From contig MGEI01000005.1 in assembly GCA_001791305.1 (NCBI GenBank), positions 404,208-468,207 of the forward strand: a stretch of 64,000 nucleotides of DNA, read 5' to 3'. The position numbers and the translations under genes were made by a program. Below the pieces are notes generated by a model that saw only the letters and a program-made list of their open reading frames with translations, did no database searches and was not told the DNA's origin. The DNA is from Candidatus Uhrbacteria bacterium RIFCSPLOWO2_01_FULL_47_17 (lineage in GTDB: Bacteria; Patescibacteriota; Patescibacteriia; UBA9934; GWF2-40-263). Shown one piece after another: positions 4,528-43,002 of the stretch. The first letter of the stretch is position 1; the number at the start of each line of letters is the position of its first letter.

Positions 4528-5427
4528 ATGATCGAAGCCATCTCAGAATCCATTGCAAAAGTTGTTGGGGCGCAAAAAGGTCCAACGATTGTGGTGATGG
4601 GCGGAATTCACGGAAATGAACGTACAGGTGTTGAGGTCGTAAAAAAACTTGCGTATCAGTTTGAACATAGCGAAATCAATCTTGCGTCAGGAGTGTTGTA
4701 TTTGATTTTAGGAAATCCAAAAGCGATTGAGCGTGATACCCGGGGGAGTGAAGACCATGCGGATTTGAATCGTTGTTTTAAACGCGACGTTCTCGAATGC
4801 ATTCCCGAAACGTACGAACAGACGCGCGCTCAAGAGATCGCAAAGATTCTCGCCACAGCCGACATCTCAATCGACCTTCACGCCACAAACAAACCTTCCG
4901 TCCCGTTTCTTTGCTGCGCCGTCGACGAGGCACACGAAAAAATTTACCAATGGTTTGACTGCGACCGCGTCCTCGCTGATCCACGCTACATCCTCGGCGG
5001 CGAGCCTGTGACGACGGACGAGTTTATCGATCTCAACGGTGGAGTCGGAATTTGTTATGAGACTGGACAGTCGAAGGATTTGAGTCGCATTGACGAGGTG
5101 TTGAGTGATGTGAGGGATGTGTTGAGGGATCAGAACATGATCGCGGCTATGGCCCCCTCTCCCTTCGAGGGAGAGGGCGGGGGGAGAGGGGTCACACGAT
5201 CTGTTTATGAACTCGTCTCCGTCATCAATCTCACCGAAGCTGGATTTCGATACGAAGGAACTCTCGGTGGCGGGTCGTTCGAGGAATTCACTTCTGGCCA
5301 AACGATCGGCTACATCGGTGATAAACCCGTGGTTGCCGAGTTTGATGGCGTGATCGTGTTCCCAAAGATTCCGGAATTGCAGACCTTTGGGAAGCCGGTG
5401 GTGTATCTCGCAAAGAAAATCAAGTAA
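4528..5427 (+). CDS. Succinylglutamate desuccinylase/aspartoacylase (AstE/AspA) family zinc hydrolase
   Basis: VVMGGIHGNERTG signature and the HADLNRCF region. It carries an in-frame family-A repeat at 5152..5195 that encodes PSPFEGEGGGRGV. Confidence 0.6.
   Translation: MIEAISESIAKVVGAQKGPTIVVMGGIHGNERTGVEVVKKLAYQFEHSEINLASGVLYLILGNPKAIERDTRGSEDHADLNRCFKRDVLECIPETYEQTRAQEIAKILATADISIDLHATNKPSVPFLCCAVDEAHEKIYQWFDCDRVLADPRYILGGEPVTTDEFIDLNGGVGICYETGQSKDLSRIDEVLSDVRDVLRDQNMIAAMAPSPFEGEGGGRGVTRSVYELVSVINLTEAGFRYEGTLGGGSFEEFTSGQTIGYIGDKPVVAEFDGVIVFPKIPELQTFGKPVVYLAKKIK
5152..5195. repeat. Family-A palindromic/G-tract element (GCCCCCTCTCCCTTCGAGGGAGAGGGCGGGGGGAGAGGGGTCAC), in frame within a CDS
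   Basis: A near-identical copy lies at 24672..24715 inside the ComEC-like gene. Related copies lie at 29402..29445, 36916..36960 and 35402..35440. Confidence 0.75.
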
Positions 5428-11853: not shown

Positions 11854-12564
11854 CTACGTCAAACGGCTCAAAAACGATTCGATTTTTATGAGATGACTCT
11901 CGATGTTTGCGGAATCGAGCTGGTCGAAGGTCATGGCGTCCGCAATAACGAAGAGTCCAATGGATGTTCGACGAAGTTCCGAAACATATCCACCCACACT
12001 AAGTTTGGCGCCAAGATCCCGGGCGATCGATCGAATGTATGTTCCAGAAGAGCAATGAATCCGGAGGGAAATGTTTGAAAAGTCTGAAAGGTCGGAAAGG
12101 TTTGAAAGGCATTCGATCGAATAGATTTTAACCTTTCGAGGTTCCACAAGCGTTGGTGTTCCGGCCCGAGCTAGTTCGTACAGCTTTTTCCCTTGCACTT
12201 TAATAGCTGCATACGTAGGCGGAACCTGGTCGATTGTCCCTGTAACTGTTTTGAGAGCTTCTTCGATTACGGAAGGGGTTAGGGGCGAGGGGTTGGGGGT
12301 TAGGGTGATTTCCCCCTTTATATCATCTGTTGTCGAGGTTGCCCCCAAAATAAATGTCGCTTCATAACGTTTATCAAGTCCGACGAACTTCTGGAGTTCG
12401 CGTGTGGCCTCTCGAGAAACAGCAATCAAAAGCAAACCGGTTGCAAACGGATCGAGGGTTCCAGCGTGGCCGATGCGTTTTTCGCCCGTTAAACGACGAA
12501 GTCGCGCGACGACATCAAACGAGGTGATTCCTTCTGGTTTGTCGATGAGGATGAAACCTTTCAT
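11854..12564 (-). CDS. truB: tRNA pseudouridine(55) synthase TruB
   Basis: MKGFILIDKPEGITSFDVVARLRRL...GHAGTLDPFATGLL. The start was taken at the internal Met of the longer ORF. An in-frame G-tract repeat at 12272..12316 encodes LTPNPSPLTPS. Confidence 0.8.
   Translation of the reverse strand: MKGFILIDKPEGITSFDVVARLRRLTGEKRIGHAGTLDPFATGLLLIAVSREATRELQKFVGLDKRYEATFILGATSTTDDIKGEITLTPNPSPLTPSVIEEALKTVTGTIDQVPPTYAAIKVQGKKLYELARAGTPTLVEPRKVKIYSIECLSNLSDLSDFSNISLRIHCSSGTYIRSIARDLGAKLSVGGYVSELRRTSIGLFVIADAMTFDQLDSANIESHLIKIESFLSRLT
12272..12316. repeat. G-tract element GGGGTTAGGGGCGAGGGGTTGGGGGTTAGGG (G-quadruplex-capable) inside the truB coding region
   Basis: Five G3+ tracts sit on the plus strand; truB mRNA carries the C-rich complement, translated as TPNPSPLTP. 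A short related CCCTAACCCC lies at 14786..14797. Confidence 0.55.
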
Positions 12565-12733
12565 AATATTCGAATCATACTCGACCGATTGGGCTTTGAC
12601 AAAAGTTCGGGTGCACTTGATTTCATTGACCATTCCCCCCTTTTCTTATACACTCGTCGACAACTGCCAGATTTATTTTTATTTCATGCATGGGTACTCA
12701 TAAAGGGCACCCCTACGATCGTTTCGGCCCCAT

Positions 12734-14782
12734 TTGCCTATGAACATTACCGAACTTGCCCGTCGTCTTCGTGTCCGTCCGGATGAACTCTTGCAGAAAT
12801 TGCCAGAGCTTGGTTTTGCGGTTGGTGCACGCGCCATCAAAGTGGATGACCGCCAAGCGCAGAAAATTATGGAGGCGTGGGCGGAAATGTCTCGTAAAGA
12901 GCGTTTGGCGCGCAAAGTGGAAATGCAAAAGGCACATTCGGGCACGCGTCTTGAAATGCCGGAAGAAGATCGTAAGCCGGTAAAGATTCCGGCGATTACG
13001 ACGGTGCGTGATTTCGCATCGTTGTTGGATTTGTCTGTGCCACGCATCATGCAAGAGCTCATGAAGAACGGAATTCTTGCGAGTATCAACGAACGCATCG
13101 ACTTCGACACAGCTTCGATCATCGCGGAAGATCTTGGATTCCGCGCGGAGCTTGATACGGATACAAAAAATAATAACGAAGACACATCGGGAATTGATAA
13201 AATTCGCGAACGTTCGGATAGCGAAAAGAAAGAAGACTTGGTTACGCGTCCGCCGGTTGTGGTTGTCATGGGACACGTTGACCATGGAAAAACAAAATTG
13301 TTGGATGCCATCCGCACCACAAACGTGATGGCAACAGAAGCGGGTGGAATTACGCAGCACATTGGTGCATATCAAGTGGAACGCAACGGTCGTCATCTGA
13401 CATTTATCGACACGCCAGGTCACGAAGCGTTTACGGTTATGCGTTCGCGTGGTGCAAAGGTTGCGGACATTGCCATTCTTGTGGTCGCAGCTGATGATGG
13501 AGTGCAACCACAAACAAAAGAAGCGATTAACATTATCAAATCCGCAAACCTTCCATTCATTGTTGCGCTCAACAAGATCGATAAAGAAGGAGCAAACATT
13601 GATCGCGTGAAAGGTGAGCTTGCAGAATTGAACATCACCGCAGAAGATTGGGGTGGTTCGAGTATTATCGTTCCTGTGTCTGCGCGAGAAGGAAAAAACA
13701 TCGATCAACTCCTCGACATGTTGCTCCTCGTTACAGACATGGAGAAAGATCGTATTGTTGCAAATCCAAATGCACGCGCGATTGGAACCGTTGTCGAGTC
13801 TCATGTTGATACAGGAACGGGTCCTGTTGCAACCGTGCTCGTTCAAAGCGGAACCCTCAGTGTTGGCGACACATTGTCGATTCGCGACACACTTTATGGC
13901 CGCGTTCGCGCCATGAAAGATTGGAATGGAAAAACACTTTTGAAAGCAACGCCATCCACACCGGTTGAGATTGTTGGATTTAAAGTGGCGCCGGCTGTTG
14001 GGGATGTTATGGATGTTCCAAATCCATCCAAAGAATTGAAAAAAATGAAAGCCACAGACAGCTCGATGAAAGCCACGGAAGAAATGGCGTCTATTCATCG
14101 CACACAAGCGCAGTCCGAAGAATCAAAAACAGAAGAAGGGAAAAAGCATGTTTTGCCACTCATCATTCGTTCAGACGTTCTCGGGTCTCTCGAAGCGATT
14201 CTTGGAATGATCGACAAAATTAAACATGAAGATGTTTCTGTCAAAGTGATTAAGAAAGGTCTTGGAAACATTACCGACACGGACGTTCAAGATGCAGAAG
14301 CGGGTGGAGCCATCATCATGGCGTTTAACACACGTCCAAGTGGAACGGCAGAAATCCTTGCGCGCGACAAACACGTCTCTATTCGCAAGTACGACATTAT
14401 CTACAGACTATTTGATGATGTGATTGAAGAGTTGAAGAAGCTGCTTCCAGCAGAACTCATCATCACAGAACTTGGTGGATTTGAAGTGGTGAAAGTCTTC
14501 CGCAAAACAGATCATGGATTTATTGTGGGAGGAAAAGTAAAGAAATCAAAAATCTTGCCAAAAACAAAATTGCGTATTTCACGTAATGGAGAGTATGTTG
14601 GTGAAGGAGAAATTCTCGTGCTCCAACTTGGCCCCGGTGAAATCAAAGAAGGACAACCCGGACAAGAAATTGGATTGTCGTTCAAAGGAAAAGTAAAACC
14701 AGAAGAAGGGGATATCTTTGAAACGTACACAGAAGAGAAGATCACAAAATTATTTAAAATTGAAGGCATTGACGCGCGTTAA
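12734..14782 (+). CDS. infB: Translation initiation factor IF-2
   Basis: G-domain motifs [25 protein letters not shown] and NKID, within a 682-aa protein. Confidence 0.9.
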   Translation: MPMNITELARRLRVRPDELLQKLPELGFAVGARAIKVDDRQAQKIMEAWAEMSRKERLARKVEMQKAHSGTRLEMPEEDRKPVKIPAITTVRDFASLLDLSVPRIMQELMKNGILASINERIDFDTASIIAEDLGFRAELDTDTKNNNEDTSGIDKIRERSDSEKKEDLVTRPPVVVVMGHVDHGKTKLLDAIRTTNVMATEAGGITQHIGAYQVERNGRHLTFIDTPGHEAFTVMRSRGAKVADIAILVVAADDGVQPQTKEAINIIKSANLPFIVALNKIDKEGANIDRVKGELAELNITAEDWGGSSIIVPVSAREGKNIDQLLDMLLLVTDMEKDRIVANPNARAIGTVVESHVDTGTGPVATVLVQSGTLSVGDTLSIRDTLYGRVRAMKDWNGKTLLKATPSTPVEIVGFKVAPAVGDVMDVPNPSKELKKMKATDSSMKATEEMASIHRTQAQSEESKTEEGKKHVLPLIIRSDVLGSLEAILGMIDKIKHEDVSVKVIKKGLGNITDTDVQDAEAGGAIIMAFNTRPSGTAEILARDKHVSIRKYDIIYRLFDDVIEELKKLLPAELIITELGGFEVVKVFRKTDHGFIVGGKVKKSKILPKTKLRISRNGEYVGEGEILVLQLGPGEIKEGQPGQEIGLSFKGKVKPEEGDIFETYTEEKITKLFKIEGIDAR

Positions 14783-14799
14783 CCCTAACCCCTTTCTTT

Positions 14800-15120
14800 A
14801 TGTCCGAGCTTGTCCTCACAGAAGAAAATTTTGATCAATCCATTTTGCAGGCAGAAAAATTAGTGCTCGTGGATTTTTGGGCACCGTGGTGTGGTCCGTG
14901 CCGCATGATGGCTCCTGTCCTTGAAGAACTCGCGGCTGAAATGGATTCGGTGACGATCGGAAAGATTAACGTCGACGAACAATCCGCCCTCGCGCAACGG
15001 TTCAACATTCTCTCCATTCCAACATTCATCTTGTTCAAGAAGGGAGAAGTGATCGATCAGTTCTCCGGAGCGATGACGAAACAAGCGTTTAAGAGTCACA
15101 TCGAAAAACATTTAGTATGA
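14800..15120 (+). CDS. trxA: Thioredoxin
   Basis: WAPWCGPC active site in a 106-aa protein. Confidence 0.9.
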   Translation: MSELVLTEENFDQSILQAEKLVLVDFWAPWCGPCRMMAPVLEELAAEMDSVTIGKINVDEQSALAQRFNILSIPTFILFKKGEVIDQFSGAMTKQAFKSHIEKHLV

Positions 15121-20365: not shown

Positions 20366-23209
20366 ATGAGCTATAACCATCAGGAAATTGAAAAGAAATG
20401 GCAGGCCAAATGGGCGGCCAATCGAGCGGGTCATGTTGACGAGGCCGCGTCGAGAGACAACGCGCTCTATTATTTGATCATGTTTCCGTACCCATCTGGA
20501 TCTGGTTTGCACGTGGGACACGTGGAATCGCAAGCCGCGATCGATATTTTGGCTCGCATGGAACGCATGCGTGGAAAAAATGTGTTGTGTCCGATCGGAT
20601 ACGATGCCTTCGGTTTGCCCGCCGAGAATTATGCGATCAAGACGGGAGTACACCCTGCCGAGACCACAAAAAAAGCGATCGAGAATTTTCATAACCAAAT
20701 GCAATCGCTTGGTCTTTCGTTTGATTGGTCACGCGAAATTTCGACGGCTGATCCGGAATATTACAAATGGACGCAATGGTTATTTTTGTTGTTCTACAAA
20801 AACGGATTGGCGTACAGAAAAAAATCTCCCGTGAACTGGTGCGAAGGATGCCATACGGTTCTTGCAAACGAGCAGGTTGTCGCGGGAGCTTGTGAGCGTT
20901 GCGGGACGGTTGTTGTGCAAAAAGAGTTGGAGCAATGGTTTTTTCATATCACAAAATATGCAGATCGACTTCTTGCGGGATTGGATTCGATCGACTGGCC
21001 AGAGAAGATTAAGTCGATGCAACGCAACTGGATTGGGAAGAGTGTGGGGGCAGAGATAAACTTTTTAGTGATGAGTGATGAGGGATCAGGGATCAGTGAT
21101 CAGGCGAAAGATTCCCTCAAGTTTACACCGGAGCTAACCGAGTTAATTTATTCAGGAAAAAAGACCAACACGATTCGTTTGGAGAAAAAGAATTTGCAAG
21201 TTGGTGACACGGTTCGACTCATGACTCGATTGAGTGCAACAGAAACGCATTCATTCGCGTTTGCGAAAATTACGGGTGTTGATTTGATAAAGCTGAACGA
21301 CATCTCACTTGATCTCAAAGGACACGAAAGATATGAATCACGAGAAGCCATGTTAAAAAGTTATCAAGATTTTTATGGTGCAACTGTTTCGTTAGAAACA
21401 GAATTTGTTCTTTATCACTTTGCGAACGTTACGCCGCTCATTACCGTCTTCACCACACGCCCAGACACACTCTTCGGCGCAACCTATCTCGTTCTCGCGC
21501 CCGAACACGCACTCGTCGATCAGATCGTCACAGACGAACATCGATCCGAGATCGACACGTATCGAATCGCTGCATCAAAAAAGTCTGTGCTTGAACGAAC
21601 GGAATTACAAAAAGAAAAGACGGGAGTCTTCACAGGTGCCTATGCAATCAATCCGGCAAATGGAGAACAGATTCCAGTCTGGATCGCGGATTATGTGATC
21701 ACAACTTACGGAACAGGAGCGATTATGGCGGTACCCGCACACGATGCGCGCGATTTTGAGTTTGCAAAGAAATATGAGTTGCCAATCAAAGTTGTCGTGA
21801 AGCCGGCCGTGCTGCAAACGCTCATGTCCGAGACTCTCGCAGTCTCTCACGGTGCACAGTCTTCCGTCGAGATCGTCTCGGATTGTTTTACAGAACAAGG
21901 AATTGCGATCAACTCCGCGTTTCTCGATGGCCTCTCGACTGCGGACGCAAAACAAAAGATGATTGCTTGGCTCGAAGAAAAACATATTGGAAATGCAAAA
22001 ACGACTTTTCGTCTCCGTGACTGGCTTGTTTCTCGCCAGCGATACTGGGGAGCGCCGATCCCGATTATTTGGTGTGAAAATTGCGGTGCGCAGCCGGTTG
22101 AGGAAGCACAGCTTCCTGTCGAACTTCCAACCGACGTCGATTTCTCCGCCATAGGCGGATCCGCCTCCGGCGGAAAACCAACAGGTGAATCACCGCTCGT
22201 CGATTCAAACACATTTCACAATGTGAAATGTCCGACGTGCGGAAAAGCCGCGCGTCGCGAATCCGACACGATGGACACGTTCGTCGATTCGTCCTGGTAC
22301 TATCTTCGCTACACAGATCCGCACAATACGAATGCGTTCGCGGACAAATCAAAAATTGATTATTGGTGCCCGGTCGACCTGTATCTCGGCGGTGCAGAAC
22401 ATGCTGTGATGCATTTGTTGTACGCGCGATTTTTTGCGTACGCGCTTCACGATCTGGGCTATCTTGGCTTCGAAGAGCCATTCTTGAAACTCAAAAATCA
22501 AGGTCTCATTCTTGGTCCGGACGGCGACAAGATGTCAAAATCAAAAGGGAACGTGGTGAACCCGGACGAGATGGTTTCCGAATATGGCGCGGACGCACTT
22601 CGTTTGTATGAAATGTTCATGGGCCCACTCGAAGACGCAAAGCCGTGGGATACGAAAGGCGTAGTCGGCGTTCGTCGTTTTCTCGATAAGGTTCACAATT
22701 TGTGCATTCGCGTTATAGGCGGGGTCCCCAGACCCCGCGACGATGCGCATACGAAATTGATTCATAAATCCATCAAAAAAATCACGTCCGATCTCGAAGA
22801 ATTAAAATTCAACACAGCCATCTCTCAGCTCATGATTGTTGTGAATGAATTCTCGAGCGCGTCTTCGATCAACAAAGAAACGTTCGAAACGTTTTTGAAA
22901 CTCCTCGCGCCTCTCGCACCACACCTCGCCGAGGAACTGTGGGAGAAGCTTGGACACACGACGTCGATCTTTGCAGAGTCATGGCCTGTGTTCGATTCAA
23001 CACTCATCGTCGACGATGTGGTCGACATGGGTGTTCAAGTAAATGGAAAAGTTCGCGGGACGATCTCGCTTGCACCAAGTGCGGACGAGGCCACGGCAAA
23101 AGAACTCGCGTTTGCAAATGTGAATGTGATGAAATGGATTGATGGCAAAGAGATTATGAAGATTGTGTATGTGCCAGGAAAGATTTTTAACATTGTTGTA
23201 AAGGAATAG
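20366..23209 (+). CDS. leuS: Leucyl-tRNA synthetase with an inserted ASCH-like domain
   Basis: Starts MSYNHQEIEKKWQ, with PYPSGSGLHVGHV (the HIGH motif), the TTRPDTLFGATYLVLAPEH editing domain and KMSKS. A ~115-aa insertion (21067..21420) sits between the catalytic and editing regions. A family-B repeat lies in frame at 22715..22742. Confidence 0.9.
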   Translation: MSYNHQEIEKKWQAKWAANRAGHVDEAASRDNALYYLIMFPYPSGSGLHVGHVESQAAIDILARMERMRGKNVLCPIGYDAFGLPAENYAIKTGVHPAETTKKAIENFHNQMQSLGLSFDWSREISTADPEYYKWTQWLFLLFYKNGLAYRKKSPVNWCEGCHTVLANEQVVAGACERCGTVVVQKELEQWFFHITKYADRLLAGLDSIDWPEKIKSMQRNWIGKSVGAEINFLVMSDEGSGISDQAKDSLKFTPELTELIYSGKKTNTIRLEKKNLQVGDTVRLMTRLSATETHSFAFAKITGVDLIKLNDISLDLKGHERYESREAMLKSYQDFYGATVSLETEFVLYHFANVTPLITVFTTRPDTLFGATYLVLAPEHALVDQIVTDEHRSEIDTYRIAASKKSVLERTELQKEKTGVFTGAYAINPANGEQIPVWIADYVITTYGTGAIMAVPAHDARDFEFAKKYELPIKVVVKPAVLQTLMSETLAVSHGAQSSVEIVSDCFTEQGIAINSAFLDGLSTADAKQKMIAWLEEKHIGNAKTTFRLRDWLVSRQRYWGAPIPIIWCENCGAQPVEEAQLPVELPTDVDFSAIGGSASGGKPTGESPLVDSNTFHNVKCPTCGKAARRESDTMDTFVDSSWYYLRYTDPHNTNAFADKSKIDYWCPVDLYLGGAEHAVMHLLYARFFAYALHDLGYLGFEEPFLKLKNQGLILGPDGDKMSKSKGNVVNPDEMVSEYGADALRLYEMFMGPLEDAKPWDTKGVVGVRRFLDKVHNLCIRVIGGVPRPRDDAHTKLIHKSIKKITSDLEELKFNTAISQLMIVVNEFSSASSINKETFETFLKLLAPLAPHLAEELWEKLGHTTSIFAESWPVFDSTLIVDDVVDMGVQVNGKVRGTISLAPSADEATAKELAFANVNVMKWIDGKEIMKIVYVPGKIFNIVVKE
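22715..22742. repeat. Family-B palindrome ATAGGCGGGGTCCCCAGACCCCGCGACGA inside leuS (in frame, encoding IGGVPRPRDD)
   Basis: 27 of 29 nt are identical to the intergenic copy at 34038..34069. The same core occurs at 6722 and 26057. Confidence 0.7.
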
Positions 23210-23212
23210 GGT

Positions 23213-24523
23213 ATGAACTTGGTGATCATCGGCACGGGCTATGTTGGCCTTACGTCTGCGCTCGGATATACACAACTCGGTCATCGTGTTGCGTGTGTTG
23301 ATGTGAATGCGGAAAAAATTGCGCAATTGGATCTGGGACATGTTCCGTTTTTTGAATCGGGTTTATCGGATGTTCTTCATACAGCGCAAGAAGCCGGTTC
23401 GATTATTTTTACGACAGACCTCGCATCTGTTTTGTCCGAAGCGGAACTTGTGTTGTTTGCCGTTGGAACACCGTCGGCCTCTACGGGCGAAGCGAACTTG
23501 TCGTTTTTATTGCATGCAGCGCGTGATGTTGGTCGTCATTTGGATCACGAAGTATTGCTCGTCGTGAAGAGTACGGTTCCGGTCGGAACAAATCGTCGTG
23601 TTCTTGAGGTCGCGCGCGAGGCGATGACCGTTGCCGGTCGAGGAGATCTCACAAGTTTGATTCAAATCGCGTCGCTCCCAGAATTTTTGCGAGAGGGAAG
23701 TGCCATTGCGGATTTTATGGCGCCGGAGCGAATCGTTGTTGGCGCGGATGATGACGTTGCCTATCGACTTGTGGAAGAACTCCATCGCGGCATTCAAACC
23801 ACATGGGTGAAGACAACGATCGAGACAGCAGAGCTTACGAAGTACGCGGCGAACGCAATGCTCGCAACAAAGATTTCGTTTATCAATGAGATCGCAAATA
23901 TCGCAGAGCGCACCGGAGCGAATGTGGTCGACATTGCGCATGCGATCGGACTCGACTCGAGAATCGGGCCGCATTTTTTGAACGCAGGCATCGGCTACGG
24001 TGGTTCATGCTTCCCGAAGGACGTCTCGGCGCTGCGACAAATTGCGGGCGCGAATGGATATGATTTTAAATTGTTGTCTGCTGTGATTGAGGTGAACAAT
24101 CATCAACGCGATCTTTTTTTGAAAAAAATTCAAGAGATGCTTGGAAACATGAAGGGCCGACGCATTGCGGTCTGGGGACTCGCGTTCAAACCGGGAACAG
24201 ATGATGTGCGTGAATCGGCGGCGATTGATCTTGTACGAAGACTCTACGCGATCGGTGCGGAAGTTTGCGCGTTTGATCCGCAAGCGATCGAGACGGCGCG
24301 AAAAATTTTGCCGGATGGAATTCAGTTCGCGGGAACCGCGATCGATGCAGCCGAAGGGGCAGAAGCACTCATCGTTCTTACCGAGTGGCCAGAGTTCCGC
24401 GATGTTTCATTCTCGACCCTCAAAGCACGCATGCTCGATCCGATTGTTTTTGATGGACGCAACTGCCTGAAAGATGCACACCTCGAAAAATTTGGATTCA
24501 CCTATGTTGGTGTCGGTATTTAA
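23213..24523 (+). CDS. ugd: UDP-glucose 6-dehydrogenase / nucleotide-sugar dehydrogenase
   Basis: MNLVIIGTGYVGLTSA NAD-binding motif and the catalytic GGSCFPKD. Confidence 0.85.
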   Translation: MNLVIIGTGYVGLTSALGYTQLGHRVACVDVNAEKIAQLDLGHVPFFESGLSDVLHTAQEAGSIIFTTDLASVLSEAELVLFAVGTPSASTGEANLSFLLHAARDVGRHLDHEVLLVVKSTVPVGTNRRVLEVAREAMTVAGRGDLTSLIQIASLPEFLREGSAIADFMAPERIVVGADDDVAYRLVEELHRGIQTTWVKTTIETAELTKYAANAMLATKISFINEIANIAERTGANVVDIAHAIGLDSRIGPHFLNAGIGYGGSCFPKDVSALRQIAGANGYDFKLLSAVIEVNNHQRDLFLKKIQEMLGNMKGRRIAVWGLAFKPGTDDVRESAAIDLVRRLYAIGAEVCAFDPQAIETARKILPDGIQFAGTAIDAAEGAEALIVLTEWPEFRDVSFSTLKARMLDPIVFDGRNCLKDAHLEKFGFTYVGVGI

Positions 24524-26036
24524 AAAGATCACAACATCGCCATCAAGAACATTCGCCCTTCTCGCGGCGATGTTTTGTTTCGGCATCCTCGTAGGTCCAC
24601 TCGCGATCGGCATCTCGACGTCGGTCTTCGGCGTGCTCCTCGCGATCTGTCTCCTGAGCTTCTCATTCATAGCCCCCTCTCCCTTCGAGGGAGAGGGCGG
24701 GGGGAGAGGGGTCACAAGTGCATCTTCTCGAAACACATTCCGCATCTTATGCCTTGCTCTCTTCTTCCTCGTCTTGGGATTATTTTGCTACCAACAAAGT
24801 GAAATTCCAAAAAACATTCCCACGGTTCGTGACTTCACCGGTTCTCAGATCCGCATCGAAGGTGATGTGATCGCCGAGTCATCCATCAAAACAAAATCAC
24901 AACAAGTGACAATTGGTCGCGTGAAAGTTGCTGACGTGCCCGTATTCGGAAACGTGCTCGTAACTGTCTTGAGGGAACAGTCGATCGCATACGGCGATCA
25001 CCTCGTCTTCTCTTGCTCCATGCAAATTCCACGACCATTCAGTGGATTCGCGTATGATCGCTTCCTCCAAGCAAAGGGAACCTTTGCGCTTTGTCGCTTT
25101 CCGCACGATCTCGAACGCGCGCCCTCGAATGCGTTCTCGCTTGTTGCTTCGATCCTCACATTCAAACGAGACGTTGTCTCAACCATGAAACACGTCTTTC
25201 CCGAACCGCATGCTTCGTTCCTCTTTGGTCTCGTCTTCGGAGGAAATGTTGGTCTTGAGCGAACGATCCAAGACGAGTTTCGAGAAACCGGCATGTCACA
25301 CATCCTCGCCGCCTCCGGTTTCAATGTCTCGCTTTTCACCTTCGTCTTCTTCGGCTGGATCGTTCAGCACCTCGGCCGTAAACGCGGCGCGATCGCAACC
25401 GCAATTTTGCTCGCTGTGTATGTGATCATGGCCGGCGCAACCGCCGCCGTGGTTCGCGCCGCAATCTTCGGAGGTGTTCTCCTTATCGGTTCCATGATCG
25501 GGCGACGCGCGTCGATCGTGAATACGCTTCTGCTCACCGCATCCGTCATGTTGTTTTACAATCCGCGTTGGCTCCTCGACGACGTTGGTTTTCAACTCTC
25601 GTTCGTCGCCTTCGCCGCAATCATTTTCATCGCGCCGCGTCTCGAAGAAAAACTCGAGTTCGTTCCCGAACACATCGGCATCCGCAACGCCCTCGCCGGT
25701 TCACTCTCTGCAATTTTTCTCACGCTTCCCATCATCCTCTGGCAGTTCGGCTCGATCTCGCTTGTCGCCCCATTCGCAAACGTTTTCGTGCTCCCACTCG
25801 TTCCATTCCTCATGTTCTACACAATCGCGATTCTGCCGATCGCCTGGCTTTCGACTTCCATCGGACAACTCATCGCTCTGCCGGCGCTCTTCGGATCGAA
25901 ATACATTCTCGCGATAGTCTCGATATTCGCCTCGCCAACATTCGCCTCCGTTTCCGTTCCGTTCGCGCAGACAGCCGCGGTCATCGTTGTGATTGGGCTC
26001 GCCATCGGATCCGTTGTCTTTTTTCGACGGGCGTGA
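24504..26036 (+). CDS. ComEC/Rec2-like membrane protein (DUF4131 plus competence domain)
   Basis: FGLVFGGNVGLERTIQDEFRETGMSHILAASGFNVSLF, the ComEC core, and multiple TM helices. An in-frame family-A repeat lies at 24672..24715. The start was taken at an internal Met because the long ORF overlaps the end of ugd. Confidence 0.6.
   Translation: MLVSVFKKITTSPSRTFALLAAMFCFGILVGPLAIGISTSVFGVLLAICLLSFSFIAPSPFEGEGGGRGVTSASSRNTFRILCLALFFLVLGLFCYQQSEIPKNIPTVRDFTGSQIRIEGDVIAESSIKTKSQQVTIGRVKVADVPVFGNVLVTVLREQSIAYGDHLVFSCSMQIPRPFSGFAYDRFLQAKGTFALCRFPHDLERAPSNAFSLVASILTFKRDVVSTMKHVFPEPHASFLFGLVFGGNVGLERTIQDEFRETGMSHILAASGFNVSLFTFVFFGWIVQHLGRKRGAIATAILLAVYVIMAGATAAVVRAAIFGGVLLIGSMIGRRASIVNTLLLTASVMLFYNPRWLLDDVGFQLSFVAFAAIIFIAPRLEEKLEFVPEHIGIRNALAGSLSAIFLTLPIILWQFGSISLVAPFANVFVLPLVPFLMFYTIAILPIAWLSTSIGQLIALPALFGSKYILAIVSIFASPTFASVSVPFAQTAAVIVVIGLAIGSVVFFRRA
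24672..24715. repeat. Family-A element in frame within the ComEC-like gene (encodes PSPFEGEGGGRGV)
   Basis: 43 of 44 nt are identical to the copy at 5152..5195. Confidence 0.75.
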
Positions 26037-26056: not shown

Positions 26057-26080
26057 GCGGGGTCAGGGGACCCCGCCTAT
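26057..26080. repeat. Family-B palindrome (reverse orientation) GCGGGGTCaggGGACCCCGCCTAT between comEC and ndk
   Basis: Same core as 6722, 22715 and 34038. Confidence 0.6.
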
Positions 26081-26092
26081 AACATAAAATGT

Positions 26093-29390: not shown

Positions 29391-29401
29391 TGGGCGTCCC
29401 A

Positions 29402-29445
29402 GCCCCCTCTTCTCATCGAGGAGAGGGCGGGGGGAGAGGTGTCCC
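29402..29445. repeat. Family-A variant element immediately upstream of the GNAT start codon
   Basis: GCCCCCTCTTCTCATCGAGGAGAGGGCGGGGGGAGAGGTGTCCC, directly followed by the ATG. Confidence 0.65.
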
Positions 29446-30009
29446 ATGCGTATTCGTCGATTGAATTTCAGTGATCTTCGGCAAGTGGTTCTGTTGTATT
29501 GCGGGTGTTTCACAGAAGCTCCGTGGTTCGAATGCTTCGATCCGGAAGAAGTGTGGCAAGAGTTCGTGTTGCTGTTTGCGCAAGCGCTTCCAAAAAAGGT
29601 TCGTGCAAAACACAAAGAACGCGCAGAGTTTCTCGTATGTGAAAATGAGGGTCAAATCGTGGGCGCTGCGATCGGATTTCCAATGGCTCAGAAACCAGAT
29701 GTCGCCACCCTTGTGACGACAGACACGGAACACACATTTTATTTTTCCGAACTGTTCGTGAGTTCGATGTATCGCAAGCAAGGTGTCGCGAAAGCGCTGA
29801 TTCGTGCGCGTATGAAAAAAGCTCGCGCGCGCGGGTTCACACACGGCGTGGTGCGCACCTCGATTGCGCAGTCCGTCATTCAACATCTCTATGTCGACGA
29901 GCTCGGGTTTTCGATCGTTGCGACACAAGAGGTCACATCGACAAAAGTGATCGATGGCGTGAAACAGGACGTCCCTGACACGCGTGTGATCATGGCCGGA
30001 AAAATCTAG
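29446..30009 (+). CDS. GNAT family N-acetyltransferase
   Basis: Motif A VSSMYRKQGVAKALI in a 187-aa protein. Two hairpin terminators follow (30006..30030, 30041..30075). Confidence 0.6.
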   Translation: MRIRRLNFSDLRQVVLLYCGCFTEAPWFECFDPEEVWQEFVLLFAQALPKKVRAKHKERAEFLVCENEGQIVGAAIGFPMAQKPDVATLVTTDTEHTFYFSELFVSSMYRKQGVAKALIRARMKKARARGFTHGVVRTSIAQSVIQHLYVDELGFSIVATQEVTSTKVIDGVKQDVPDTRVIMAGKI

Positions 30010-30107
30010 GAGAGGGAGGGGCATGCCCCTCCCTTACGTAAACGTACAGGCGCACGACATGCGCCTGTTTTTTGTGTATGAAAAAACCATCTCGAGATTC
30101 GAGATGG

Positions 30108-32162: not shown

Positions 32163-32192
32163 CGTAGGGGAGGGTCGCGACCCTCCCCTACG
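32163..32192. repeat. Family-C palindrome CGTAGGGGAGGGTCGCGACCCTCCCCTACG between the radical SAM gene and nadE
   Basis: Paralog of 1703..1726 with the same AATGC flank. Confidence 0.6.
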
Positions 32193-32205
32193 AATGCGCA
32201 TCGCA

Positions 32206-33962: not shown

Positions 33963-34037
33963 CGTTGTTTCCTTCACCTTCACATGCCGACACAATTGTC
34001 AGCATGCGGAGAAAAGGGGTGATTGAATCACCCAGGT

Positions 34038-34069
34038 TATGGGCGGGGTCACCAGACCCCGCGACGAAT
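34038..34069. repeat. Family-B palindrome TATGGGCGGGGTCACCAGACCCCGCGACGAAT downstream of pncB
   Basis: Near-identical to the copy inside leuS. Confidence 0.65.
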
Positions 34070-35371: not shown

Positions 35372-35506
35372 AGAAATGTGCCCCCGAATGCGTTCCACGA
35401 AGCCCCTCCTGCGAAGGAGGGGTTGGGGGAGGTTGCGCTCAGGAAAACGTTTCTTGAAGGAAAAATGTTCCCGGGGCTGAATGATTCAACCCCGAGACGA
35501 GATGAC

Positions 35507-36895: not shown

Positions 36896-36915
36896 CTTGT
36901 ACTCCTGTGTTCGAA

Positions 36916-36960
36916 GCCCCCTCTCCCTTCGAGGGAGAGGGCTGGGGAGAGGGTTTGTCC
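36916..36960. repeat. Family-A element upstream of the nadD-nadK start
   Basis: GCCCCCTCTCCCTTCGAGGGAGAGGGCTGGGGAGAGGGTTTGTCC. Confidence 0.65.
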
Positions 36961-40888: not shown

Positions 40889-42187
40889 ATGTCTGTTTTT
40901 CATGTCACCGGCGGGAAACCTCTCATTGGAGAAATTACTGTTTCTGGCGCAAAGAACGCTGCGTCCAAAATGTTGATCGCAACATTGCTCACTTCGGAAT
41001 CCGTTGTACTCAAAAATGTTCCGCGTCAACAAGAAACACAAATCACGCAAGAGATTCTCGAAGCCGTTGGGGCGAAGATCGACTGGCGCGCGCAGAATGA
41101 AGTGTGTGTAACAACAGCGTCGATCGCATCCACAAACGCTACATCACTCTCGCGAAAAAATCGCATTAGTATTTTGGCACTCGCGCCACTCTTGCATCGT
41201 GCGGGCGAAGCATTTGTTCCTCGGGTGGGTGGCGACGCGATTGGGCCGCGCCCCGTGAATTTTCATATTGATATTTTGACGAAGATGGGTGCGGAAATTT
41301 CCGAAACAGAAAACGGATATCACGCAAAAATCTTGAAACGATTAAAAGGAACACTCATTGAGCTCGCGTATCCATCCGTCGGCGCAACGGAAACCGCTAT
41401 TCTCGCCGGTGTACTTGCTGAAGGTCGCACCACGATCAGAAACGCGGCGGGAGAGCCGGAAGTAAAACAGTTGATCATGATGCTCCAAAACATGGGAGCG
41501 ATTATTCAGATCAATTCTGGACGTTGGATTGAAATTTTCGGCGTTGAAAAATTACGAGGAACAGAAGTCACAGTGATGCCGGACCGCATCGAGGCCGCAT
41601 CGTACGGATCGATGGCGATCGGAACGCGTGGCGAAATTCTCGTCCGCGGCGCAGAGCATGCGCATATGATGACGTTTCTCAATGCGGTGCGTAGAATCGG
41701 TGGGGAATATGAAGTGAAGCCGAACGGGATTTTGTTTCGCGGAACGCGGCCGCTGAAAGGTATTGAGCTCGAGACCGACACACATCCAGGCTTTATGACC
41801 GACTGGCAGCAACCGTTCGTCACTGTTCTTACACAGGCCGAAGGAACTTCGGTCGTGCACGAAACGGTTTACGAAGAACGCTTCGGCTACACAGACGCAC
41901 TCAAAAAAATGGGGGCGGACATCACGCTCTTCTCGAATTGTCTTGGTGAAAGTCCGTGTCGATTTAAAGGCATGAATTACAAACACTCGGCGGTGATCAA
42001 CGGACCATCGAAATTGCACGCCGCCGAAGTTGAAGTCCCAGACATTCGCGCCGGCCTCGCGTTCGTTGTTGCAGCACTCATTGCAGACGGCACATCGACC
42101 CTTACAGGAATCGAACATCTTGATCGTGGGTATGAGAACCTCGAAGAGAAACTGCGGGGAGTTGGCGCGGATATAAAAAGAGAGTGA
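40889..42187 (+). CDS. murA: UDP-N-acetylglucosamine 1-carboxyvinyltransferase
   Basis: MSVFHVTGGKPLIGEITVSGAKNAASKMLIATLL, 432 aa. Confidence 0.9.
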   Translation: MSVFHVTGGKPLIGEITVSGAKNAASKMLIATLLTSESVVLKNVPRQQETQITQEILEAVGAKIDWRAQNEVCVTTASIASTNATSLSRKNRISILALAPLLHRAGEAFVPRVGGDAIGPRPVNFHIDILTKMGAEISETENGYHAKILKRLKGTLIELAYPSVGATETAILAGVLAEGRTTIRNAAGEPEVKQLIMMLQNMGAIIQINSGRWIEIFGVEKLRGTEVTVMPDRIEAASYGSMAIGTRGEILVRGAEHAHMMTFLNAVRRIGGEYEVKPNGILFRGTRPLKGIELETDTHPGFMTDWQQPFVTVLTQAEGTSVVHETVYEERFGYTDALKKMGADITLFSNCLGESPCRFKGMNYKHSAVINGPSKLHAAEVEVPDIRAGLAFVVAALIADGTSTLTGIEHLDRGYENLEEKLRGVGADIKRE

Positions 42188-42321
42188 ATAAGTGATGGAG
42201 TGGAAGAGTGAAGGAAGAAAACAATTTTTGTTTTTGTAATGCCTCTTCTGCCGATTTACTAAATAGAAAAATTGCCCCCCTCGATCACTCCTCCACTCCA
42301 TCACTCATTCACTTTGTCTCT

Positions 42322-43002
42322 ATGTTTCTCACCCTCTTATTTTCCTCCCCACCTCTCGCCCTCGCCTGGATCCTCGCGATTCTTTTTTCGCTCACCATTC
42401 ACGAATTTTCGCACGCTCTCGTCGGCAAGCTGAAGGGCGATCACACGGCCGAGCGCGAAGGTCGACTCACACTTAATCCAATGGCACACTTAGATTTATT
42501 TGGATTTATTCCGCTTTTGCTGTTTGGATTTGGTTGGGCAAAACCCGTTCCGTTTAATCCGTACAATTTAAAAAATCCAAAATGGGATTCTGTGCTCATT
42601 GCGCTTGCTGGACCTGGATCAAACTTGATCATCGCGGCTGTGTGCTCCGTCGCATTTCGTGTGCTTCTCGAAGGGGGATTGTCACCTTATAGTTTGCTCA
42701 CTGCGTTTCTCTTTTTTCTCATCCTCCTCAATTTGTTTTTAGCGCTTTTCAATGTCATTCCAATCGCGCCACTCGATGGATCCAAATTATTTTTCGCGCT
42801 TTTCGATGCGCCAAAGTATGAACAGCTCAGGAACTTCGTCGCGTTTCGCGGCCCACAAATCTTGATGTTCGCTGTACTCATTTCGCTTTTTACAAATTTT
42901 AACATCTTCTTTTTTATCTCCACGCCAGCATACGCGATTTGTGACACACTTACCGGTGCAAGTTGTGCGGCGTATCAAGGGATGTTGTTTGGATCGTTGT
43001 AA
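42322..43002 (+). CDS. Site-2 protease family (M50) membrane metalloprotease
   Basis: HEFSHAL (the HExxH motif) in the first TM region and a second motif region NLFLALFNVIPIAPLDGSKL. Confidence 0.55.
   Translation: MFLTLLFSSPPLALAWILAILFSLTIHEFSHALVGKLKGDHTAEREGRLTLNPMAHLDLFGFIPLLLFGFGWAKPVPFNPYNLKNPKWDSVLIALAGPGSNLIIAAVCSVAFRVLLEGGLSPYSLLTAFLFFLILLNLFLALFNVIPIAPLDGSKLFFALFDAPKYEQLRNFVAFRGPQILMFAVLISLFTNFNIFFFISTPAYAICDTLTGASCAAYQGMLFGSL

Follow-up and report, generated by a model that had tools for sequence, protein, structure and literature searches.

Why does the gene for a conserved enzyme contain a run of G-tracts, and what has this run done to the protein? The truB gene of a Candidatus Uhrbacteria genome, which encodes tRNA pseudouridine-55 synthase, contains such a run. 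The original prediction, made from the sequence, described it as a telomere-like, G-quadruplex-type (G4) repeat that had been inserted in frame. We analyzed the 64,000 nucleotides of DNA around truB ("the window") and compared the gene to its orthologs. The main features are listed in Table 1.

Table 1. Features of the window, with positions numbered from its first nucleotide.
Feature	Position	Strand	Description
truB, tRNA pseudouridine-55 synthase	11854..12564	-	236 aa if counted from MKGF; the longest ORF reaches 12633
G-tract array	12275..12305	+	GGGG TTA GGGG CGA GGGG TT GGGGG TTA GGG; degenerate heptamer repeat and canonical G4 motif
truB codons 87-98 (T L T P N P S P L T P S)	12271..12306	-	36-nt patch relative to the ancestral-type loop, of equal length
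Second in-frame repeat in truB	12068-12109	-	9-nt period, 4.7 copies
Promoter-like TTGTCA-17-TATGAT	12602-12574		upstream of the 12564 start of truB, within the 12564-12633 extension
infB	12734-14782	+	stop codon at 14780-14782
Third exact occurrence of GGGGTTAGGG (the + strand reads CCCTAACCCC)	14783..14792	-	in the 17-nt infB-trx spacer; thioredoxin starts at 14800
Exact 13-mer GAGGGGTTGGGGG	12287-12299, 35417-35429		in the truB array and in the intergenic element
Intergenic hairpin with G-tract tail	35403..35432	+	CCCCTCC TGCGAA GGAGGGG, then TT GGGGG AGG
Family A	5149-5196, 24669-24716, 29399-29446, 36913-36960		GCCCCCTCTCCC-TTCG-AGGGAGAGGG-C-GGGGGGAGAGGGG; four copies, one orientation
REP-like palindromes starting with GTAG	1702-1735, 30010-30043, 32164-32197		GTAGGGGAGGGTCGTGACCCTCCC
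Third small hairpin family	22712-22743, 34036-34067, 26057-26083		GTTATAGGCGGGGTCCCCAGACCCCGC; two copies in direct and one in inverted orientation
Longest inverted repeat in the window	42173-42235 / 42261-42323		63-nt arms, 76% complementary, 25 nt apart

The G-tract array and its gene

The product of the truB ORF is firmly identified as TruB. It matches the Pfam families TruB_N (4.3e-46) and TruB_C_2 (1.2e-9), and its matches in the PDB are solved TruB structures, of which the best is 1sgv from M. tuberculosis (5e-50). The same protein is present in NCBI entries from several Rifle MAGs, and at least 24 contigs encode it, the longest of which is 569 kb. The neighbors of truB are rny and infB, and infB is divergently transcribed.

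The annotated TruB protein has 259 amino acids and starts at 12633, while its orthologs start at the MKGF that corresponds to 12564, so the annotated start is probably too early. The promoter-like site lies upstream of the 12564 start, which implies that the truB mRNA would be leaderless or would have a very short leader.

On the + strand, the array has five G-tracts of 3–5 G, separated by loops of 2–3 nt; the original prediction of five plus-strand G-tracts within truB was accurate. We used a regular expression to scan for canonical G4 motifs (at least four runs of at least three G on one strand, with loops of 1–7 nt). The array is such a motif, and it is the only one in the window with five tracts. 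No other site in the window scores as high with G4Hunter (2.72, computed over 25 nt). In 100 first-order Markov simulations, the mean of the maximum score was 1.69 and the largest was 2.08. Tandem Repeats Finder (TRF) reports a period of 7 with 4.6 copies, 76% matches, and the consensus AGGGGTT, so the units are arranged head-to-tail. The array is real and is far beyond what is expected by chance. The DNA of the tract is unchanged across six contigs that were assembled independently, from NCBI, ENA, and JGI samples, which rules out an artefact.

The tract is predicted to have a high potential to form a G4. With G-quadruplex energies, the ViennaRNA prediction is a four-layer G4 of -34.7 kcal/mol. 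If these terms are left out, the predicted energy is -6.5 kcal/mol, and composition-matched shuffles also average -6.5 kcal/mol. As an oligonucleotide, the G strand of the tract is d(GGGGTTAGGGGCGAGGGGTTGGGGGTTAGGG).

We looked for other features at the tract. There is no complementary C-tract arm beside the array, and no inverted repeat or target-site duplication. Nor did we find a promoter or a terminator at the tract. At the gathering threshold, Rfam identified just two tRNAs in the entire window and no family at the tract, and a permissive Rfam scan of 12100-12500 gave one match at chance level (E = 1). The 64-kb window contains no second full copy of the array, no other array of the heptamer unit, and no array that could have been the donor.

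A TruB loop of constant length

In truB, the C-rich strand of the array is translated as TLTPNPSPLTPS. With its flanking residues, the segment reads I-T-L-T-P-N-P-S-P-L-T-P-S-V-I, so the original prediction was right that the complement of the G-tracts is read as a Pro/Ser-rich peptide (L-T-P-N-P-S-P-L-T-P-S) within a conserved enzyme. In orthologs that are 77–83% identical overall, the loop is I-S-E-P-V-S-T-x-H-L-T-K-E-Q-I. The part of this ancestral-type loop that corresponds to the patch is S E P V S T x H L T K E (peptide SEPVSTTHLTKE). The patch encodes the end of a beta-strand, a coil of 8 residues, and two residues that open a helix. In an AlphaFold2 model of the window's TruB, whose mean pLDDT is 91.3 (82 for the block from 91 to 100), these correspond to the end of strand 86–88, coil 89–96, and the start of helix 97–105. 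Based on the complex of E. coli TruB with RNA, we take this region to be non-catalytic and to precede the RNA-binding thumb loop.

The claim of an in-frame insertion did not survive alignment to orthologs. The GEITLTPNPSPLTPSVIEEALK peptide aligns without a gap to TruB from M. tuberculosis (1sgv) and with a one-residue difference to TruB from E. coli. Of 50 orthologs from Uhrbacteria or other Patescibacteria, 39, including the window's TruB, have a distance of 39 residues between the motifs TTDD and QVPP. The tract adds no residues relative to the orthologs. The prediction had proposed that it would be refuted by finding the same segment in unrelated taxa, and these do have a segment there, of the same length and with a different sequence. 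An insertion into TruB is ruled out by the alignments to the PDB and to the orthologs. About 12 codons of a variable surface loop, which leads from a strand to a helix, were overwritten while the length of TruB stayed the same.

TruB has a second variable loop, and the second in-frame repeat in the window's truB lies there. It encodes (S-[ND]-[LF])n, as SNLSDLSDFSN. Relatives have similar repeats or long insertions in this second loop, for example P0017 and P0027, with RAERSNLPGEVESAGKIASSSMTPPRND.

Did the loop change because of its DNA or because of its peptide? Across the ORFs of the window, CCC is the rarest proline codon (13% of Pro), and CTA accounts for just 1.4% of Leu (23 codons among about 18,000). 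The 12 codons of the patch include three CCC, two CTA (of the 23 in all of the window's ORFs), and three ACC. When we resampled synonymous codons for the patch's peptide using the window's codon usage, at least four runs of C4 arose in 0.15% of trials (P = 0.0015). Also, two orthologs have Pro-rich loops at the same site, P0037 (LCPPSEPLTQ) and P0040 (PCPPTEPLTPS), and these are encoded with CCA and CCG codons and are free of tracts. The rare codons and these tract-free loops imply that the cause lies at the level of the DNA and not in a need for prolines.

These data bear on the idea that selection acted on the protein: a rigid, Pro-rich (PxxP-like) loop would be favored, and the G-tracts would be a by-product of codons for Pro and Thr. 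Proline is found in many of the ortholog loops (P0037 and P0040, and also SVPAKHLT in M. tuberculosis), and the window shares all four of its prolines with P0002, the only other protein in the database with the patch loop (see below). But the patch uses the genome's rarest codons, similar peptides arise without tracts in P0037 and P0040, the DNA of P0002 has a perfect 7-nt periodicity, and most close orthologs have loops that are not Pro-rich. We consider selection for the peptide to be quite unlikely.

Reading a 7-nt repeat across three frames gives T-P-H-P-S-P-L-T-P, and the TPxPSPLTPS peptide is the three-frame translation of a heptamer DNA repeat, rather than the repeat being a consequence of the peptide. 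On the G strand, it can be seen in the sequence that the TAG and TGA triplets in consecutive 7-nt units leave no frame open, so the orientation in truB, with the C-rich strand as sense, is forced.

P0002 (from locus L007) is 86% identical to the window's TruB. Its loop is I-T-P-T-P-H-P-S-P-L-T-P-S-D-I, and according to TRF, the loop's DNA is a perfect heptamer, (ACCCCTC)x3.9, which reads ACCCCTC ACCCCTC ACCCCTC ACCCCTT. The units are head-to-tail, as in the window, and the opposite strand is GGGG TGA GGGG TGA GGGG TGA GGGG. Most close orthologs lack the tract. A protein search with a 49-aa fragment around the loop found no further candidates for TruB with the array, and the loci that we found in the species representatives of GTDB included neither the window's own species nor further array-bearing relatives.

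A repeat whose period is not a multiple of 3, and which is perfect in P0002, might be a phase-variable contingency repeat, with the number of heptamers switching truB on or off by frameshifting. However, there are about 4 units, the window's copy is degenerate (76%), and truB is a housekeeping gene. We also found no polymorphism in copy number: the tract is identical in the six independent assemblies and in four proteins from NCBI MAGs, and the variant in the same cluster has an identical loop. We find phase variation hardly credible.

The two truB genes with the patch have diverged considerably, with 79% nucleotide identity, and 43% of the codons that encode the same amino acid differ. Within the patch, 4 of the 10 such codons differ, which matches the gene as a whole. 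In contrast, if we consider third codon positions, 0 of 5 have changed within the four shared G4 tracts and 4 of 6 have changed within the loops (P about 0.05–0.06). This contrast, from two lineages, gives a weak hint that there might be a constraint on the tracts.

The same loop of TruB contains other G/C-tract repeats in other Uhrbacteria. The loop has a CCCTCCCC/GGGGAGGG hairpin in L014 and three tandem copies of the 11-nt unit CCGCAGGGGTA in L016. In P0035, it has a hairpin with a G tail, similar to family A (TCCCCCACCCCTTTCGAAGGGGAGGGTCGGGGCGGGG), which adds 9 amino acids; and in P0028 and P0029 it has one or two hairpins, which add 12 and 20 amino acids. The G-rich side of these repeats is on the sense strand in some Uhrbacteria and on the antisense strand in others (P0035 and L016 are opposite to the window), so opportunistic repeat DNA is a better fit than a function that is specific to one strand. 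The loop is a recurrent landing site for G/C-tract repeats in Uhrbacteria.

Similar DNA is also found nearby in two related Uhrbacteria: just 3' of truB, the spacer between truB and rny has hairpin elements made of C-tracts and G-tracts (L013 3843-3870 and L015 3825-3854).

The hairpins of P0035, P0028, and P0029 are real insertions, and the window's tract shares its 13-mer with a hairpin element of the same genome. These observations would suit a mobile low-complexity element that inserted in frame and lengthened TruB, in the manner ascribed to family A at other sites. But the window's TruB has no net insertion and the tract has neither an inverted repeat nor a target-site duplication. A deletion that compensates exactly would be needed, which is possible, but we view the insertion of a mobile element as very unlikely.

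Another potential explanation is that the G4 itself is selected. Four or five G-tracts would be kept on the template strand, where a G4 in the DNA would modulate the transcription of truB, the passage of replication forks, or recombination. The predicted propensity is certainly very high (as measured by either G4Hunter or ViennaRNA), the window and P0002 still have the same four tracts although their nucleotides have diverged by about 20%, with the changes falling only in the loops, and every canonical G4 motif in the window is on the + strand. On the other hand, the statistics are weak (P about 0.06, from two lineages), the tract is absent from most close orthologs, and the G-rich repeats in the same loop of P0035 and L016 are on the opposite strand. 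Furthermore, stop codons on the G strand already account for the orientation of the array, and the bias of G4 motifs towards the + strand parallels the positive GC skew. We think that selection for a G4 is unlikely, and that the high predicted G4 potential of the template strand is most likely incidental.

How did two lineages come to have the patch? The ancestral loop's CAC CTC ACA codons (H-L-T) are one step from the CCC CTC ACC unit, in a register that matches the arrays. In a neighbor-joining tree of the gene, built without the two variable loops, P0002 groups with P0003 and P0004, which lack the array (88% bootstrap), and the window's truB groups weakly with P0006, which also lacks it; each of these groupings rests on 2–5 informative sites. 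The flanks directly 3' of the patch agree with this tree. A single neutral origin can be squared with where P0002 falls only by invoking recombination, unless the tree is wrong. The patch may have had a single origin within an unresolved radiation, it may have been transferred as a short patch, or it may have had two origins from the same seed.

Related repeats in the window and in metagenomes

The original prediction viewed the array as a feature of the DNA that is akin to the other G-tract elements of the genome, and shared words bear this out. The 13-mer GAGGGGTTGGGGG matches exactly at two sites, as compared to 0.00 expected. The 10-mer GGGGTTAGGG has two copies in the truB array and one inverted copy in the spacer between infB and trx, or three copies in the window as compared to 0.01 expected, and all three lie within 2.5 kb. 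A short related sequence after the stop codon of infB had been predicted as well. That sequence, CCCTAACCCC, does exist, but at 14783-14792 instead of 14786-14797.

In relatives, the infB-trx spacer is also 17 nt and has an unrelated, A/T-rich sequence. In the window's lineage, the A/T-rich sequence was exchanged for CCCTAACCCCTTTCTTT (14783-14799), with the length kept. We found no Shine-Dalgarno-like sequence in the 17-nt spacer, either in the window or in the relatives. By comparison with the relatives, the spacer is a second length-neutral replacement, 2.5 kb away from the truB tract.

If GGGGTTAGGG were a recognition motif, bound by a protein or used for DNA uptake, it might spread by replacing coding and spacer DNA alike without a change in length. 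This would fit with three exact copies in 2.5 kb (against the 0.01 expected) and with both sites being replacements of equal length relative to the relatives. However, there are just three exact copies in 64 kb, all in a single neighborhood, and the loops in P0002 are TGA, not TTA. A sequence-specific motif strikes us as highly improbable.

The window has several families of small hairpin repeats with G-tracts and C-tracts. Family A elements begin with a hairpin (CCCTCTCCC TTCG AGGGAGAGGG), which is followed by a G-tract tail (C GGGGGGAGAGGGG), and the intergenic element at 35403-35432 has the same architecture. Two of the four copies of family A are within long ORFs, and the copy in the ORF that starts at 24474 is read as APSPFEGEGGGRGVT. 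All four copies are G4 motifs or G4Hunter peaks. For the putative insertion of family A in the AstE/AspA-like ORF, the alignment to the PDB spans residues 12–121 only.

GTAG followed by a hairpin is the hallmark of REP sequences that are recognized by RAYT transposases, and the window has three palindromes of this type. A similar GTAG-type palindrome, GTAGGGGACGGTTGTGACCGTCCC, is found in the infB-trx spacer of the related genome L014. A third family of small hairpins is listed in Table 1. The longest inverted repeat in the window lies within or beside the ORF at 42208-43002, with C-rich G4Hunter peaks at 42275 and 42342. The + strand is the G-rich one for all 5 canonical G4 motifs in the window; the same holds for 7 of the 9 G4Hunter peaks with scores of at least 1.5. 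This bias parallels a positive GC skew across most of the window.

To look beyond the window, we scanned metagenomes with GGAAGGGGTNAGGGGNGAGGGGT and found 68 loci. None of these are in truB; they are unrelated arrays from other organisms, mostly with high GC content. More broadly, arrays of the form (GGGGTGA/TAA/TTA/CGA)n are common in the metagenome scan, in many bacteria with many different GC contents. Arrays of (GGGGTGA)n or (GGGGTTA)n reach about 10 units in L138, L149, L114/L151, and L153, mostly on high-GC contigs. In L138 and L149, the arrays come directly after a CCCCTCTCC...GGAGAGGGG hairpin, which is the family-A-like layout of a hairpin plus a G tail. The open reading frames at these array loci are uninformative, because a high GC content yields long spurious ORFs and the search pattern itself determines the peptide.

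Interpretation and comparison with known repeats

On balance, and with modest confidence, we favor the view that the tract is repeat DNA that is tolerated within a permissive and naturally variable loop of TruB. The tract would be a short, decaying heptamer repeat, (TCACCCC)n in the sense of truB or (GGGGTGA/GGGGTTA)n on the template strand, and would belong to the G/C-tract repeat DNA that is scattered throughout this Candidatus Uhrbacteria genome. The permissive loop lies between a beta-strand and the helix ahead of the thumb region. The replacement was probably templated or of a slippage type, and was probably seeded on the ancestral H-L-T codons. Template switching or ectopic conversion, together with selection for a constant loop length, could have produced it: if the length of the loop is constrained, then only outcomes that preserve it would survive, and the enzyme presumably tolerates the altered loop. 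Several points speak against tolerated repeat DNA: a length-neutral replacement of 36 nt is hard to obtain by simple slippage, the 64-kb window has no donor array, the third positions within the shared G4 tracts are unchanged, and the gene tree places P0002 with lineages that lack the array.

A bolder proposal is that in Uhrbacteria, which belong to the Candidate Phyla Radiation (CPR), small G/C-tract elements repeatedly overwrite or enter the permissive loops of essential enzymes such as TruB. These elements would be either hairpins with a C-arm, a G-arm, and a G-tract tail, or heptamer arrays that resemble the tails. On this view, two lineages that are apparently not sisters would share the truB array as a length-neutral "patch conversion". 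This would imply either templated mutagenesis or gene conversion that is seeded by microhomology (CACCTCAC), or else selection to keep four G-tracts on the template strand as a G4. We consider this proposal rather doubtful. If it is true, then a directed process or selection for G4s rewrites permissive loops of housekeeping proteins in the ultra-small genomes of the CPR. In the library that we searched, we found no paper that names G-quadruplexes together with the Candidate Phyla Radiation.

If the tract is tolerated repeat DNA, then it is a clean case of repeat DNA shaping the sequence of a protein at constant length. It also suggests caution in annotation, as what looks like a "Pro/Ser low-complexity insert" can be the footprint, at the level of codons, of a DNA repeat.

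The closest known kinds of sequence are bacterial G4 motifs, the heptamers of STRR type (short tandemly repeated repetitive sequences), and, as translated repeat DNA in conserved genes, the Rickettsia palindromic elements (RPEs). The original prediction also called the array telomere-like. The resemblance of the unit to eukaryotic telomere repeats stands: it is similar to TTAGGG(G) and TTGGGG. The rest of the comparison fails. Telomeric repeats are long arrays in which linear replicons end, whereas the tract consists of 4.6 degenerate units inside a bacterial housekeeping gene, between infB and rny, with no telomerase context.

Like the canonical G4 motifs of bacteria, (G3+ N1-7)4, the truB tract has at least four G-tracts, short loops of 2–3 nt, and a high G4Hunter score. 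It differs in being intragenic, on the template strand, and specific to a lineage, and its folding is a prediction. The G4 of Neisseria pilE is associated with a promoter, an sRNA, and a recombination system, while the truB tract has none of these.

The STRRs are heptanucleotide repeats of heterocystous cyanobacteria, such as CCCCAGT, and were reportedly described by Mazel and colleagues in 1990. They share with the truB array a tandem unit of 7 nt with a C4/G4 tract. However, they have a different unit, belong to another phylum, and are found in many copies, mostly as longer arrays, while truB has a single array of 4.6 units within a gene. STRR sequences have been used for fingerprinting (PMC5088731), and our literature search on STRRs turned up uses in fingerprinting only.

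RPEs are selfish DNA that is read in frame as part of conserved genes (Ogata et al. 2000, 2002; reviewed in PMC10969869). We rejected the identification of the tract as an RPE-like insertion, as well as its identification as a telomeric repeat, because it lacks their defining features: it adds no residues, is not palindromic, and is internal. RPEs are about 100–150 bp, form palindromes (hairpins), and add residues, while the truB tract is 31–36 nt, non-palindromic, and adds none. The RPEs are alike in that repeat DNA is read within a conserved enzyme, at a tolerant site on the surface, and the loop of TruB has been hit repeatedly in the relatives.
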